From IMG/VR virus record IMGVR_UViG_3300036790_000419, positions 84,914-148,913 of that record: 64,000 nt of DNA; one strand, given 5' to 3'. The position numbers were made by a program, and so were the translations under genes. Shown one piece after another: positions 2,865 through 8,629 of this stretch. Every line of letters starts with the position of its first letter. The first letter of the stretch is position 1. The notes beneath the pieces were generated by a model that made no database searches, was not told the origin of the DNA, and worked only from the letters and a program-made list of their open reading frames with translations. The stretch is from a virus.

Positions 2865-3142
2865 GTATCCCGTTCGAGGCACTGGTTGAGTACGCGGCCG
2901 GCCTTGCCGAGGAGGACATGGAGGAGGGCCTGGACCAGCTCGCGGCGCGGGCCGGGACCGTGCCCGGGCGGCTGGCCGACGCGATGGTCGCGGCCAGGCT
3001 GGTGCGGCTGAACCCGGCGGAGGTCCGCGCGTCCGTGCACCCGGCGGTCCGCAGGGCGGTGGAGGCCGACCGGGGCGGGGTGGCTAGCGGCGCCGCGGCC
3101 AGCCTCTTTACCCAGCCAGAAATTCCCCTGGATTTAGCTTGA
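2861..3142 (+). CDS. hypothetical protein
   Basis: GC3-rich ORF, GTGA overlap. Confidence 0.6.
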   Translation: MSIPFEALVEYAAGLAEEDMEEGLDQLAARAGTVPGRLADAMVAARLVRLNPAEVRASVHPAVRRAVEADRGGVASGAAASLFTQPEIPLDLA

Positions 3143-3167
3143 CACCAGTCAAGCAGGGTAGTAACGT
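3139..3167 (+). promoter_or_regulatory. housekeeping-sigma promoter upstream of the tRNA array
   Basis: TTGACA-17nt-TAACGT; -35 lies inside palindrome CTTGAC-ACCA-GTCAAG (3138-3153). Confidence 0.75.
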
Positions 3168-3173
3168 AGTAGC

Positions 3174-3426
3174 TACCCGGGATGCGACCCAACCAGCCGC
3201 ACCCGGGGTTCACCGCAAAGAACTGGCGCGGGTTAGGCCCGCTCCGCTACCGTAAGGATCATGATGTCAAGGTCATCGAGTAAGCAGTGGCAGCGAGGGC
3301 ACGAGCCCTTCGCAGCCGCCGTGCTGCCCGAAGACAACTGCATCCCGGCGAACAAGGCGGTCGTTGTGTAGCGGCCAACCTGCACCAGCAGACCGCCTCG
3401 GGAGAAGCCTCCTGAAGGCGGTTTTT
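3174..3426 (+). ncRNA. structured leader RNA (Ms1-like candidate) ending in an intrinsic terminator
   Basis: Closing helix CCGGGATGC(3177-85)/GCATCCCGG(3340-48), internal hairpins, terminator hairpin 3392-3422 plus T-run. Confidence 0.5.
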
Positions 3427-3444
3427 AGTTGGACAACTCAACAT

Positions 3445-3517
3445 AGGGACGTAGTTCAGCGGCCAGAACGGCAGCTTCCAACACTGCGCGCCGGGGGTTC
3501 GAGTCCTCCCGTCCCTG
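3445..3517 (+). tRNA. tRNA-Trp(CCA)
   Basis: Cloverleaf; loop TT-CCA-AC. Confidence 0.85.
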
Positions 3518-3815
3518 CGACCGTCAGCAACGGCGAGAGCCCGCGCAGGCGCATGTCAATGCAGCTTGAGAACTCCACAGCGTGAGCATCAGCGGCGGGC
3601 GCCATCCCGTCGCACATGACTGGCAGCCGGGTGCGCTCACACCGTGCCCGGCTGCCGATCAACGCCCGGTTCACGGCATGCCGTGACGATGGGCAAGCAC
3701 CGTGCCGTCCGCCGGCCTCCGGGCTCGCGTTCCACCGTAGGGGTGTGCGGCCTGGCTCCGGCCAGGTGGCGGCGGTACTTGGTGTCAAGAGTTTTTGCAC
3801 GATATGCAAAGCAAT

Positions 3816-3888
3816 GGGGCCTTAGCTCAGCTGGTAGAGCATCTGCTCGGCAGACAGAAGGTCGGGGGTTCGATCCCCCCAGGCTCCA
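3816..3888 (+). tRNA. tRNA-Ala(GGC), C33
   Basis: G3:U70; loop TC-GGC-AG. Confidence 0.85.
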
Positions 3889-3890
3889 CA

Positions 3891-3961
3891 GCGGCGGGTT
3901 GCCGGTTCGAATCCGGTCCGGTCCACGCATGGGCTGGTAGCTCAAATGGACAGAGTGTCGC
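3891..3961 (+). ncRNA. circularly permuted tRNA-like RNA 1
   Basis: Order: GCGGC, variable loop, T-arm (TTCGAAT), acceptor 3' strand, loop, acceptor 5' strand, D-arm, GTCGC. Confidence 0.75.
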
Positions 3962-3965
3962 ATCT

Positions 3966-4038
3966 GGGGACGTAGCTCAGCTGGTAGAGCAGCCGCCTCG
4001 CAAGCGGCGTGTCGCGGGTTCGATTCCCGCCTTCTCCA
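3966..4038 (+). tRNA. tRNA-Ala(CGC)
   Basis: G3:U70; loop CT-CGC-AA. Confidence 0.9.
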
Positions 4039-4194
4039 CTTAGGGCACTACTGCCGCGCGTCGGCCGGCGCAAGGCGAGAGAGGGCAGCTGACCTCTCTG
4101 GTGCCTTACCGTTCACCCGTGCGGTAAAACCGGGGACCAGCGGAGCCGAATGTCCGGGGCACCGGGCTGAGGGTGGGGTAAGCCTCCGCAACAT

Positions 4195-4272
4195 CGGGGT
4201 GTGGCGCAGCTTGGCTAGCGCGCTACGTTCGGGACGTAGAGGTCGTGAGTTCAAATCTCACCACTCCGACCA
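4195..4272 (+). tRNA. tRNA-Pro(CGG)
   Basis: Cloverleaf, encoded CCA. Confidence 0.92.
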
Positions 4273-4332
4273 GGATCTCAATGGCTCAAGTGAGGCGGCA
4301 GTAAAGGGCCACGCCCTGCCGGAGATCCGTAA

Positions 4333-4404
4333 CGGGATGTAGTTCAGTGGAAGAGCGCCTGGTTTGGGACCAGGATGTCGCGGGTTCGAGCCCTGCCATC
4401 CCGA
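4333..4404 (+). tRNA. tRNA-Pro(TGG)
   Basis: Loop TT-TGG-GA. Confidence 0.9.
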
Positions 4405-4406
4405 CT

Positions 4407-4476
4407 GCTGGTCAGAGCCGCGTGGCGTGCGGGCCCTTAGCGGGGCACTCAGGGTTCGAGTCCCTGCCTGGTCAGC
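4407..4476 (+). ncRNA. tRNA-like RNA with truncated anticodon loop
   Basis: Canonical T-arm CAGGG-TTCGAGT-CCCTG, D-like arm, anticodon arm GCCC-TTAGCG-GGGC. Confidence 0.55.
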
Positions 4477-4553
4477 CGCTCCGGTAATAGGGACGCCAGC
4501 AGCGGACGCGCGCTGGCGGTCGGTGAAACCCCGTTGCGAATCCGGAGCACCCT

Positions 4554-4626
4554 GGGGCCTTAGCTCAGATGGCAGAGCGCCCGGTTGAAACCCGGAAGGT
4601 CGGAGTCTCGGAATCTCCAGGTCCCG
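4554..4626 (+). tRNA. tRNA-Phe(GAA), aberrant T-loop
   Basis: Loop TT-GAA-AC; T-loop CTCGGAA lacks TTC. Confidence 0.75.
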
Positions 4627-4640
4627 CGCAGTAACACAAT

Positions 4641-4713
4641 GGGGATGTGGCCGAACGGTTACAGGCACTTGCCTTCCAAGCAAGCTACGCGGGTTCGACC
4701 CCCGTCATCCCCT
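4641..4713 (+). tRNA. tRNA-Gly(TCC)
   Basis: Loop CT-TCC-AA, U73. Confidence 0.9.
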
Positions 4714-4841
4714 CTGGTACGGGCCGGACTCATACTCCGGTTGCGTGCAAGTAACCGGTCCGCGGCTGTCGGGCTGCGGACCGGGAGCGCCTGGGCTGCC
4801 CGGAGGGGCCGACACCCTCTCCGGGGGCACCAGTACTCAAT

Positions 4842-4913
4842 GCGCCGCGAGCATGTACGGCTATGCAGCGGACTCTTAATCCACGGAACGGGGTTCAAGT
4901 CCCTGGCGGCGCA
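4842..4913 (+). tRNA. tRNA-Lys(CTT)
   Basis: Loop CT-CTT-AA. Confidence 0.8.
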
Positions 4914-4957
4914 CTTCACCTGGCTTCGCCGATTTTCGGCAGAGTTCGGTGTTATTC

Positions 4958-5032
4958 GGGCGAGTAGAGCAACCTGGCAGACCCTCCGCTCCCAAAAAGC
5001 GGGATGTGCGGGTTCGAATCCCGCCTCGCCCA
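4958..5032 (+). tRNA. tRNA-Leu(CAA), C33, short variable loop
   Basis: CCGCT-CC-CAA-AA-AGCGG; 5-nt variable region. Confidence 0.75.
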
Positions 5033-5136
5033 CGCCGGCTGGCAAGGCCGTCCTGCGAATCCTTGCCCGGCCTCTCCTGTGGGGAGAGCAAAGGCCGTTA
5101 CAGGAGGGGGAGAAAAGGCCCCTCCCGTCAATTCAG

Positions 5137-5209
5137 TGGGGTATGGCGCAATTGGCAGCGCAGGTGCGTCTGGTGCACAAGGTTCTAGGTTCGAGTCCTG
5201 GTACCCCAG
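5137..5209 (+). tRNA. tRNA-Gln(CTG)
   Basis: U1-A72; loop GT-CTG-GT. Confidence 0.85.
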
Positions 5210-5212
5210 CGA

Positions 5213-5285
5213 GCTGGAGAATGCGGGTTCGAATCCTGCCCGGCGAGAGAGATCTCGCCGGTGGCTTAATCGGCAAAGCGCCAGC
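5213..5285 (+). ncRNA. circularly permuted tRNA-like RNA 2
   Basis: GCTGG, AGAAT, T-arm GCGGG-TTCGAAT-CCTGC, 9-bp acceptor helix capped by GAGA, D-arm GCTT/AAGC, CCAGC. Confidence 0.8.
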
Positions 5286-5321
5286 AACCCCGGGCACGGA
5301 CGGTATCCCGGCCCGGGGCCC

Positions 5322-5395
5322 GCCCTTGTAGCTCATCTGGCAAGAGCGCCCGCCCCGTAAGCGGAAGGTCCCGCGTTCGACTCGCGGCAAGGGCT
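5322..5395 (+). tRNA. tRNA-Thr(CGT), C33
   Basis: Loop CC-CGT-AA. Confidence 0.85.
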
Positions 5396-5506
5396 CGTAG
5401 TGTCCCGCCGAAGGCGTCACAGGCCCTCATGCCGGCTCCGTTCCAGGTGCCGTGCGGGGTTCGAGTTCTGCTCGTTTCTCCCTCGATCGCGCGTCGCGAT
5501 CATTAT

Positions 5507-5580
5507 GCCCGGATAGCTCAGACGGCGAGAGCGTATCCCCGGTACGGATGAGGCCCCGAGTTCGATTCTCGGTCCGGGCT
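5507..5580 (+). tRNA. tRNA-Thr(GGT), C33
   Basis: Loop CC-GGT-AC. Confidence 0.85.
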
Positions 5581-5591
5581 CGCAAGTTCAC

Positions 5592-5665
5592 GCGGATGTA
5601 GCTCAGTTGGTTAGAGCGTGACGTTGCCAACGTCAAGGTCGCCGGTTCGAGTCCGGTTATCCGCT
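5592..5665 (+). tRNA. tRNA-Gly(GCC)
   Basis: Loop TT-GCC-AA. Confidence 0.92.
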
Positions 5666-5666
5666 C

Positions 5667-5749
5667 GGGTGAGTGGCGTAATGGCAGCCGCGCACGGTTC
5701 AGGCCCGTGTGTCCGCAAGGACGTGAGGGTTCAAGTCCCTCCTCGCCTA
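5667..5749 (+). tRNA. tRNA-Leu(CAG)
   Basis: Long variable arm; loop TT-CAG-GC. Confidence 0.9.
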
Positions 5750-5859
5750 CTTCGAGGTTGTCCACCGTGGCCGCGGGCCGCTGCGCCTGCCGTGCGAGAG
5801 CACGGGTTCCAGGACGGCGGTTAGTTTCCCTGCTAGCGGGAGCGAACGGTGACCTACAC

Positions 5860-5943
5860 GGACGCGTGGCTCAGTGGCTACAGCAGCGCCCTGCTAAGGC
5901 GTACAGGGGTAACCCTGCGGAGGTTCGAGTCCTCCCGCGTCCG
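5860..5943 (+). tRNA. tRNA-Ser(GCT)
   Basis: Long variable arm; G73. Confidence 0.9.
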
Positions 5944-6028
5944 CTTCTGCGCCGGATACCAGCCGAGTCCGTCAGGTGGTGACGCAGGCGCAGTGCCCGT
6001 GGGGGACGGCAACCCGCGACGGGCGCCC

Positions 6029-6116
6029 GGAAGCGTAAGTCGAGCCGGCCTACCGACAGCGGTCCCGAAAACCGTGAGGGGTAACTCCCGTGTGGGTTCG
6101 AGTCCCACCGCTTCCT
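6029..6116 (+). tRNA. tRNA-Ser(CGA), C33
   Basis: Long variable arm; loop CC-CGA-AA. Confidence 0.8.
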
Positions 6117-6283
6117 CCGCACATGATTGAGGCGGCACCCACGGGCCGCTTGCGGGTACCGCCTCAATGTGTAATCAGCCAGGCTGGTGATCCAGTCCAG
6201 AAGGAAGGAACCACGTGCCTTTACGAGCAGCCTAGTTTACTGCTCGCGTTCGCAAGCATACGCACAGTCACAGTGATTGTCGA

Positions 6284-6360
6284 GGGCGGGTAGCTCAGCA
6301 GGTTGGAGCACTTCCCTGATAAGGAAGAGGCCGCTGGTTCGATCCCAGCCTCGCCCACCA
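6284..6360 (+). tRNA. tRNA-Ile(GAT)
   Basis: Cloverleaf, encoded CCA. Confidence 0.92.
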
Positions 6361-6361
6361 C

Positions 6362-6436
6362 GGCGGTATAGCTCAGCCGGTGAGAGCGCCCCGCTCATAA
6401 CGGGAGAGGCCGGGGGTTCGAGCCCCTCTACCGCTA
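6362..6436 (+). tRNA. tRNA-Met(CAT) (elongator Met or Ile2)
   Basis: Loop CT-CAT-AA. Confidence 0.85.
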
Positions 6437-6437
6437 C

Positions 6438-6511
6438 GGGCCGCTAGCTCAACTGCGCAGAGCGGCTGACCTTTAATCAGCGGGTTCGGGGTTCGAGTCC
6501 CCGGCGGCCCA
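6438..6511 (+). tRNA. tRNA-Lys(TTT), C33
   Basis: Loop CC-TTT-AA; D-loop lacks GG. Confidence 0.8.
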
Positions 6512-6519
6512 CTAGCCTG

Positions 6520-6675
6520 GTGCGCGTGAGGAACCTCGCGCTCCGGGCAGCTGAGCGCCTGCACGTCATCTTCGACGCCGTCCCGGTTTACGAGGACGAG
6601 CGGTGGTACAGGTACGGAGACTGGGGCTGCCGGGCGTCCAACTGGGTGCGCCGGCAGCGGAACAAGCGCCGGTAG
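6520..6675 (+). CDS. 51-aa basic protein inside the tRNA array
   Basis: VRVRNLALRAAERLHVIFDAVPVYEDERWYRYGDWGC...KRR; GC3-rich; stop lies inside the next tRNA. Confidence 0.5.
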   Translation: MRVRNLALRAAERLHVIFDAVPVYEDERWYRYGDWGCRASNWVRRQRNKRR

Positions 6676-6742
6676 CTCAGTCGGACAGAGCAGGCGGCTT
6701 CTAACCGCCAGGCCGCGGGTTCGAGCCCCGCCTGGCGCACCA
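6666..6742 (+). tRNA. tRNA-Arg(TCT)
   Basis: Loop CT-TCT-AA; encoded CCA. Confidence 0.9.
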
Positions 6743-6745
6743 CAC

Positions 6746-6818
6746 GGTCCTGTCGTCTAGCGGCCCAGGATGCCTGATTCTCGATCAGGTCGCGCGAGTT
6801 CGAATCTCGCCAGGACCA
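6746..6818 (+). tRNA. tRNA-Glu(CTC)
   Basis: Loop TT-CTC-GA. Confidence 0.9.
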
Positions 6819-6912
6819 CGCAGAGCCTGCTACGCGGGAGACGGCCATTGCCAAAGCAGGTACTCTGAGGTCCGCGCCGGGAGCTGGCTGAAATCCGCTC
6901 GGCAGGACGCAA

Positions 6913-6986
6913 GCCCCTCTCGACTAGCGGTCCAGGTCGCCTGCCTTTCAAGCAGGATGACACCGGTTCGAATCCGGTGGGGGGAA
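6913..6986 (+). tRNA. tRNA-Glu(TTC)
   Basis: Loop CT-TTC-AA. Confidence 0.85.
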
Positions 6987-7017
6987 CGAGGGCCTCCGGG
7001 GTAACCTGGGGGCGCGA

Positions 7018-7095
7018 CGCGGAGTAGGGGAGTTCGGTTGTCCCCGCGGCGCTTTCATAACGCCGAGATCGCGGGTCCGAATCCCGCCTCCGCCA
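7018..7095 (+). tRNA. initiator-like tRNA (CAT) with 9-nt anticodon loop
   Basis: C1:C72 mismatch; CGGCG-CTTTCATAA-CGCCG. Confidence 0.7.
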
Positions 7096-7186
7096 CGAGG
7101 CCCGGCACTGGCGGCCGGCGAAAGCCCCGGGGAATACGTGGCTGGCCCTGCTGGATAAGGGCTAAACAGCCGGGGGCCTCAGTCGA

Positions 7187-7259
7187 TCCGGCGTAGCTCA
7201 ATCGGCAGAGCAGCGTCCCGTTAAGGCGAGGGTTCCCAGTTCGAGTCTGGGCGCCGGAG
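7187..7259 (+). tRNA. tRNA-Asn(GTT), C33
   Basis: Loop CC-GTT-AA. Confidence 0.85.
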
Positions 7260-7364
7260 CGCGTCAGTCTGGGATACGAGGGGCAGCAGCCCTGCCGCGG
7301 CCCGCGCGGCGGTCGCCGAAGCGGGACGAGTGCCGGGGCTCCCCAGTCAGCCGCCGGCACACAT

Positions 7365-7440
7365 GGTCTTGTAGGGGAGCCTGGCCGTCCCCGCCGCCCC
7401 GTCAAGGCGAAGATCGCGGGTTCGAATCCCGCCAGGACCG
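7365..7440 (+). tRNA. tRNA-Asp(GTC), C33
   Basis: Loop CC-GTC-AA; G73. Confidence 0.85.
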
Positions 7441-7464
7441 CTTTCTCACCCGGGGCCGGGGCGT

Positions 7465-7599
7465 TTAGACACCGGAGCGCTTGCGCCGCTCGCCCAGCTC
7501 GGTCCGCCCGAGCCGGTACAGGGCGCGGTAGCCGCCGAGCCTCAGCCCGATCCAGATGCCGGAGCCGAAGGCGATGACCAGGAGGATGAAAATGCCCAC
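7465..7599 (-). CDS. 44-aa single-TM peptide antisense to the tRNA array
   Basis: MGIFILLVIAFGSGIWIGLRLGGYRALYRLGRTELGERRKRSGV; GC3-rich. Confidence 0.6.
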   Translation of the reverse strand: MGIFILLVIAFGSGIWIGLRLGGYRALYRLGRTELGERRKRSGV

Positions 7600-7641
7600 G
7601 TGATTAAACGGTACCTGGTTCTTTACCAGTGTCTAGGCACT

Positions 7642-7716
7642 GCCCCTGTAGCTCAACGGGAGAGCGCCGTCTCGACAAGGCGGAGGGAGGTGGTCCGACA
7701 CCACCTAGGGGCACCA
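7642..7716 (+). tRNA. tRNA-Val(GAC), C33
   Basis: Loop TC-GAC-AA; encoded CCA. Confidence 0.8.
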
Positions 7717-7717
7717 T

Positions 7718-7791
7718 GCACTAGTAGCTCAGCGGACAAGAGCAGCGGCCTACGGAGCCGCGTGGCGGGGGTTCGAGTCCCTCCTAGTGCA
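7718..7791 (+). tRNA. tRNA-Arg(ACG)
   Basis: Loop CT-ACG-GA. Confidence 0.9.
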
Positions 7792-7802
7792 CGCGAGTAC
7801 AA

Positions 7803-7874
7803 GGGCGCATAGCTCAGCGGAAGAGCGCTCGGTTCACACCCGAGAGGCCGGCGGTTCGATCCCTTCTGCGCCCA
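7803..7874 (+). tRNA. tRNA-Val(CAC)
   Basis: Loop TT-CAC-AC. Confidence 0.9.
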
Positions 7875-7875
7875 C

Positions 7876-7950
7876 GGTCGGTATAGCTCAACGGCAGAGC
7901 GCTGGACTGTGGCTCCAGACATACGAGTTCGATTCTCGTTACCAACCCCA
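7876..7950 (+). tRNA. tRNA-His(GTG)
   Basis: G-1/C73; encoded CCA. Confidence 0.9.
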
Positions 7951-7951
7951 T

Positions 7952-8035
7952 GGCGGAGTGACCCGAGATGGCAAGGGGGCCGGCTGTAAACCGGCTGCGC
8001 GAGCATGGCAGGTTCGAGCCCTGCGTCCGTCACCA
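7952..8035 (+). tRNA. tRNA-Tyr(GTA)
   Basis: Long variable arm; encoded CCA. Confidence 0.9.
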
Positions 8036-8036
8036 A

Positions 8037-8110
8037 GGTCTCATAGCTCAGTGGAACAGAGCACCCGCCTCCGGAGCGGGGGGCCGGCGGTTCGAGTCCG
8101 TCTGAGACCA
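8037..8110 (+). tRNA. tRNA-Arg(CCG)
   Basis: Loop CT-CCG-GA. Confidence 0.9.
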
Positions 8111-8198
8111 CGACTGAGTTCACCGCCGTGACCTGGCAGCGGGTAGCGGTGGGCCAGTAAAGCGGGGCGTGCTGCCGGCTACGCCTGCCCCGTCCAAT

Positions 8199-8274
8199 GG
8201 CGGTATGGCCGAGTGGTACAGGCGCACGCCTGCAAAACGTGCTTACCCGGGTCCGATTCCCGGTGCCGCCTCCA
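8199..8274 (+). tRNA. tRNA-Cys(GCA)
   Basis: U73; encoded CCA. Confidence 0.9.
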
Positions 8275-8275
8275 G

Positions 8276-8348
8276 GACCCTGTAGCTCAGCGGACAGAGC
8301 TGCTTCCCCCTAAGGAGCGAGTCGCTGGTTCGAGTCCAGCCAGGGCCG
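8276..8348 (+). tRNA. tRNA-Arg(CCT), C33
   Basis: Loop CC-CCT-AA. Confidence 0.85.
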
Positions 8349-8481
8349 CCTTCGGTGCTCACGCTGTGGCAGCCTGGAGACGGGAGACCGGGTACGGGCT
8401 CGGCTTCGCGGGTCTGAGATCGTTTCCGGTCTCCCGTCACACCAGGGTACATGCACATCACTGCGTTACGCTGGCCCTATT

Positions 8482-8518
8482 ACTCCCTGTTGTCCTCTTG
8501 AGGCTGACAGGGGTTTTT
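8482..8518 (+). terminator. intrinsic terminator closing the tRNA operon
   Basis: CCCTGTTG..CCTC/GAGG..TGACAGGG hairpin plus T-run. Confidence 0.7.
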
Positions 8519-8629
8519 GCGTTCCGGTCACGTTTTGAGGGAAACAGTTCCGCCGGCCGGCGGGGTGCGACATAGTGGACTGTTTCCCCGTGACAAGCAC
8601 AGGGGGCCTATGAGTGAGGGGTTTTACCT

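Follow-up and report, generated by a model that had tools for sequence, protein, structure and literature searches.

The switch described here bears on the question of what purpose tRNA arrays serve in phages and under which conditions they are expressed. The window, the whole 64,000-nt stretch of DNA that was analysed, makes up the final 64 kb of a virus record of 148,913 bp and has 70% G+C. ARAGORN detected an array of 33 tRNA genes on its plus strand (3445–8350), with tRNA-Trp first, the same number as in the original prediction, which had placed a structured leader RNA with a terminator and an antiterminator upstream of the array. We were particularly interested in what this leader is and whether it gates the array. 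The leader is neighboured by small phage ORFs and tRNA-Trp, and all features given below lie on the plus strand. The phage genome carries a 178-bp end repeat, and the best holder of phage reads was a soil metagenome. The closest cultured match of the portal was Microbacterium phage Magritte (50%), which, together with an rrn-type motif in the array, points to an actinomycete host. The exact attenuator pattern gave 0 matches in 185,579 GTDB genomes, a search that consequently yielded neither a prophage nor a host.

Promoter, leader reading frame and codon inventory

A sigma70-type phage promoter was found at 3139–3167 (TTGACA at 3139–3144, a 17-nt spacer, TAACGT at 3162–3167), exactly where the original prediction had put it, and its position is identical in all complete homologues. 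The −35 box is overlaid by a TTGAC-N4-GTCAA palindrome, and about 30 copies of the palindrome promoter occur in the genome (genome record G000 16–88,052), most in the first 42 kb. The palindrome is a candidate operator, probably one used by a phage regulator. In one relative the leader is preceded by a tandem duplicate of the promoter (L056:801 and 899).

Homologue comparison divided the transcript into a variable 5′ UTR (3174–3260), with a Shine-Dalgarno sequence TAAGGA at 3253–3258, and a 36-codon ORF (3261–3371) that had gone unnoticed; a second ATG at 3264 is a possible alternative start. The supposed 170-nt domain is therefore a variable 5′ UTR, measuring 43–123 nt from the −10 box across homologues, followed by a putative translated ORF. 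The 9-bp helix said to close that domain is present (3177–3185/3340–3348), but it is absent from the minimum-energy fold and, outside the window, is kept only in L055, the nearest relative.

Syntenic leaders were collected by pattern and protein searches of viral and metagenome contigs, yielding 15 distinct complete homologues from about three lineages. All 15 showed the same order of promoter, variable 5′ UTR, Shine-Dalgarno sequence, ATG, 31–38 codons, TAA or TAG, terminator and tRNA array. Their ORFs have six lengths (96–117 nt), and in a codon-blind DNA alignment the gaps inside the ORF were only 3, 6 or 9 nt, while those outside were irregular and 1–5 nt long. A pattern built on RNA features only gave 39 hits, with an in-frame TAA or TAG at the expected place in 20 of 20 hits preceding tRNAs and in 0 of 19 chance hits; once duplicates are removed, the 20 comprise 12 distinct sequences, including 6 new ones, and common descent explains part of the agreement. 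L002 and L003, the earliest hits of a pattern search, were discarded as chance, and a BLAST comparison of the leader with cultured phages and plasmids returned chance matches only. A short conserved ORF with a ribosome-binding site thus lies between promoter and terminator, as in leader-type attenuators. In one soil metatranscriptome study, low-depth contigs, possibly DNA, span the leader in two relatives while none covers the upstream gene, and one of these low-depth, possibly DNA contigs stops 12 nt beyond the T run; the contigs carry no weight in the reading given here.

The coding content of the leader was then examined over its usable codons, defined as those at which a ribosome leaves the antiterminator strand uncovered (24–31 per homologue; codons 1–29, the sensing window, in ORF 3261–3371). 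The usable codons specify 17–20 amino acids, compared with about 13.5 expected overall, 12.5–13.9 in equal windows of the phage's own genes and 11–15 when this leader DNA is read in its other two frames. Per-homologue P values were 0.0002–0.045, with one row at 0.057 whose start was mis-set; the homologues are related and these values are not independent. The window's own leader encodes 18 of the 20 amino acids, all 18 within 29 codons (P 0.008), and across homologues the final seven codons contribute few extra amino acids. Trp and Cys each occur exactly once in all 15 homologues, in four different alignment columns each, and Phe and Ile occur in every homologue, in seven and five columns respectively. 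The retention of single Trp and Cys codons at shifting positions indicates selection on the codon inventory rather than on the peptide. The rare codons AGG, CGA and TCA were present in 15/15 homologues (chance 0.18, 0.05 and 0.07 each), as was GGG.

The relation of this inventory to the array is broad. The sensing window contains a codon for about 24 of the 32 elongator tRNAs, and 21 of its 24 codons are readable by the array, a share that does not clearly exceed chance given that the array reads 77% of all codons; the window's leader peptide lacks Thr and Tyr, though the array holds both tRNAs. A strict model in which the codons match this array was therefore not supported, the anticodon match being broad. 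Judging by its amino-acid breadth, the leader looks like a general sensor. In the L040 relative the array is reduced to about 15 tRNAs and starts with a Trp-like tRNA overlooked by ARAGORN (L040:2330–2405), but its leader nonetheless encodes 18 amino acids.

Terminator, antiterminator and the proposed switch

An intrinsic terminator hairpin with a T run (3390–3426, −24.5 kcal/mol) follows the ORF, and an antiterminator (3355–3398, −25.5 kcal/mol) is formed by the last codons of the ORF and the 5′ arm of the terminator. The predicted strands were all correct: GACCGCCT (3391–3398) can pair with AGGCGGT (3416–3422), five T residues being at 3422–3426, or with the upstream AGGCGGTC (3355–3362). 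The two helices share one strand and both are conserved, which supports the mutually exclusive switch proposed earlier. In an alignment of 14 distinct sequences, pairing is kept in 90% of the antiterminator cells and in 97% of those of the terminator, whereas slid registers gave 28–60%; covariation is sparse, as only one pair per helix has changed on both sides. Both helices were better than all 200 shuffles (z −5.4 for the antiterminator and −5.2 for the terminator), and the fold of the whole leader had a z of −5.6. The last six ORF codons are the antiterminator strand, and its start and the end of the stop codon are 16 nt apart in 9/9 homologues examined. This fixed register puts the strand under a ribosome reaching the stop codon, as attenuation demands. 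A long hairpin within the ORF (3263–3344) beat codon-order shuffles in 15/15 homologues (z −1.4 to −5.1) and may serve as a pause for RNA polymerase or a timer for the ribosome.

The terminator and the antiterminator lie within about 3 kcal/mol of each other in 13/15 homologues. In a transcript without the terminator 3′ arm, the antiterminator was predicted with a probability of at least 0.99 while a ribosome occupied codons 1–28 of the window's leader; its loss at codon 30 and beyond follows by construction from the ribosome footprint and is not an independent result. The full RNA of the same leader prefers the terminator at equilibrium (P 1.0), so the decision of the switch must be kinetic and co-transcriptional. 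Without a ribosome, the antiterminator is predicted to form by default in 12/15 homologues, and a conserved fold that terminates without translation was found in only 2–3 of 15. L053 is an exception in which the antiterminator is not predicted to form, and the terminator tails of the L060 and L040 lineages are U-poor.

The conservation of both helices supports the earlier proposal that an attenuator gates the array, and we are largely confident that this is a real, conserved leader-peptide attenuator. The best reading of the DNA, and probably the right one, is that a pan-amino-acid leader peptide brings about transcription attenuation mediated by the ribosome. The ORF, its composition, the two helices, their fixed register and their conservation were established by computation, and they suggest the following course of translation, termination and switching, and its trigger. 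Host RNA polymerase would start near 3174, and a ribosome would load at 3261. If codons 1–29 were decoded on time, the ribosome would cover 3355–3371, the antiterminator would be blocked, the terminator would fold and an RNA of about 250 nt would be released. A ribosome delayed in the sensing window, or never loading, would leave the strand free to pair with 3388–3398 before the terminator 3′ arm exists. Such a delay could come from uncharged, cleaved or depleted tRNA, or from general ribosome inhibition, at any codon of the sensing window. Once the antiterminator had formed, the polymerase would enter the tRNA array, probably aided by rRNA-type boxA antitermination.

Alternative readings of the leader

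The attenuator could read bulk translation speed or ribosome availability, as a timer of rare codons and hairpin, and not single tRNA pools, with amino-acid breadth secondary. This would fit the conserved TCA and GCA codons and CCC, which have no reader among the array tRNAs, the low codon adaptation of the leader (0.44–0.59; genome 0.71), the conserved ORF hairpin and the default antiterminator of most homologues. Single-copy Trp and Cys codons are nevertheless kept while they move, and the L040 leader has 24 different codons in 24 positions, so that we regard this alternative, which overlaps the best explanation, as unlikely. The peptide could also be a functional small protein whose mRNA is merely ended by the terminator, or a protein or an antisense RNA could throw the switch. 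A good Shine-Dalgarno sequence and promoter, as well as the few leader positions that are invariant across homologues, are compatible with a small protein, but the invariant Arg residues are encoded by rare codons, the overlap with the antiterminator is fixed, and no NCBIfam match was obtained for the peptide. Moreover, differences among leaders are spread evenly over codon positions (0.39/0.39/0.34), with no third-position bias, and non-synonymous differences outnumber synonymous ones (1919 versus 253), unlike a protein under purifying selection. Such a role for the peptide, or an outside effector, is thus quite improbable.

The remaining alternative, which had been raised from motif resemblance, is that the terminated RNA of about 250 nt binds host RNA polymerase in the manner of Ms1/6S RNA, either as its sole function or as an additional one. 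Its length (about 200–290 nt), its own promoter and terminator, a long bulged hairpin and the actinobacterial setting do resemble the outline of Ms1 (RF02566; PMC4191392, PMC9130861). However, an Rfam scan of the locus gave no Ms1, 6S, T-box, raiA or riboswitch match and only chance miRNA matches (E 0.78 or worse). The RF02566 model did not match the locus, while the Ms1 of M. genavense, as a control, scored 221.7 bits. Because RF02566 misses the Ms1 of Streptomyces, a second profile was built from 18 Streptomyces candidates (motif from PMC9130861); the positive controls scored 221.7 and 106.5 bits. The Streptomyces profile detected mycobacterial Ms1 weakly (E 0.0017) and 0/6 phage leaders, and local alignment scores between phage leaders and Ms1 were at shuffle level. 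The motifs behind the Ms1 proposal were absent from the Ms1 sequences examined, bar one 5-mer. The Ms1-type long hairpin with a central bubble closed by 5′/3′ pairing is not conserved in the phage leaders, and the HAD hydrolase synteny of Ms1 was not found at the phage locus. Likewise, the closing helix and the 5′ part of the leader are not conserved, and what is conserved is a reading frame. Taken with these results, an Ms1-like RNA is very improbable.

The tRNA array, plasmid leaders and known systems

Further features of the array resemble rRNA operons. A weak, partly conserved copy of an rRNA-leader (boxA-like) motif lies at 3429–3443, and 3565–3584 is identical in 19/20 bases to an actinomycete rrn leader motif. 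In Streptomyces and Spirillospora that motif is located about 200 nt upstream of 16S rRNA, and it occurs also in Nonomuraea and on plasmid pCBMA213_1 (L243:2152). The copy at 3565–3584 overlaps the arm (3575–3598) of a long-range helix with 8346–8369, which is also present in L010; enclosing 32 tRNAs, the helix is a candidate rRNA-like processing stalk. Because of the rrn motif and the long-range helix, the array looks like an rRNA-style operon behind an attenuator. A terminator-like hairpin (8495–8521) ends the array.

Some details of the array were noted besides. The ARAGORN 'tRNA-SeC' at 7018–7096 is probably an initiator-like Met-CAT tRNA, homologous arrays having Met-CAT there. Structured non-coding spacers with no Rfam match follow tRNA-Trp (3600–3810) and the array (8379–8438). 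Weak YrlA (Y RNA-like) matches at 3886–3967 and 5215–5283 (E 0.004 and 0.058) are far below the family cut-off, and no Ro/TROVE or RtcB gene was found in the phage genome. In L017, about 430 nt (1715–2130), apparently coding and HNH-like by eye, separate the terminator from tRNA-Trp.

Three cultured actinomycetes, Pseudarthrobacter chlorophenolicus A6, Paenarthrobacter YJN-5 and Nonomuraea NBC_00507, each have a plasmid on which the same layout precedes a tRNA array, with leader sequences unrelated to the phage's; BLAST showed no similarity of the phage leader to any plasmid. The megaplasmids pACHL01 (P. chlorophenolicus; L244:3717–3869 = NC_011879.1 27778–27930) and pYJN5-1 (Paenarthrobacter; L247:3023–3175, NZ_CP053545.1) carry 50-codon Shine-Dalgarno-led ORFs in which none of the 20 amino acids is missing (P about 0.01); both ORFs are absent from the plasmid gene tables. 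These two ORFs differ by in-frame 3-nt indels, their last codons form an antiterminator (−25.7, versus −28.4 for the terminator), and the terminator is followed first by tRNA-Trp, then by a boxA-like motif and an array of about 38 tRNAs. The 31-codon leader of the Nonomuraea plasmid (L242:4955–5050, NZ_CP107854.1; antiterminator −29.7, terminator −23.4) has 15 amino acids, which is not enriched, and precedes 35 tRNAs in nearly the order of the phage. For two further phages, Magritte and ET08, and for the plasmids pCBMA213_1, Tsukamurella plasmid 8 and pEDY32-46I, simple scans revealed no comparable leader ahead of the tRNA array, the start of the Euzebya array lying possibly outside the stretch examined. 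These five arrays indicate that the layout is not universal.

T-box riboswitches are terminator/antiterminator switches tied to tRNA status that bind one tRNA, whereas the phage leader would sense through the translation of many codons. The leaders of classical attenuators (trpL, hisL, pheL, thrL, ilvL) repeat one to three amino acids. The phage leader avoids such repeats, and, unlike in these systems, a fold that would cause termination with the leader untranslated was not found in most homologues. The leaders trpL, hisL and pheL and the multivalent thrL and ilvL share with the phage an ORF whose 3′ end overlaps the antiterminator and mutually exclusive helices (PMC3082878). The whiB7 attenuator works in actinobacteria, and single codons of its uORF set which starvation is sensed (PMC10274678). 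By analogy, the whiB7/wblC uORF appears similar to the phage leader in layout and broad composition (19/20 amino acids in M. smegmatis) and to the phage model in terminating if translated and antiterminating if stalled, in the same host phylum (PMC10274678). It is longer and Ala-enriched and controls a transcription factor, whereas the phage leader has 31–38 codons and a tRNA array as output; no WhiB gene was found in the phage genome, and the leader is thus not one upstream of whiB7. The trn array of Anabaena is mobile, is induced by translational stress and is under the DNA-binding repressor TrcR (PMC8421152, PMC10272220); the phage array is likewise mobile with a proposed stress switch, but the Anabaena control is a repressor at the promoter and not attenuation. 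No account of attenuation of tRNA genes or arrays was found in the literature searched, which covered few subscription papers. The mechanism is of a known kind, and its target class, tRNA genes, was not found described in that literature.

On arrays of actinomycete phages and megaplasmids, all-codon leaders, unrelated between elements, may sense tRNA loss, such that host tRNA-cleaving defences or toxins would induce replacement tRNAs as a counter-defence; we regard this as an evenly balanced possibility. The phage is uncultured, but a direct test is possible in the cultured strains whose plasmids share its layout. A pan-codon sensor of 110 nt could double as a reporter of translation stress. 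On the present reading, production of the phage tRNAs probably takes place chiefly while translation by host ribosomes is slowed. If this is true, the array tRNAs would be an on-demand rescue set, opened when ribosomes slow, and the codons of the leader would reveal which tRNA losses the phage watches.
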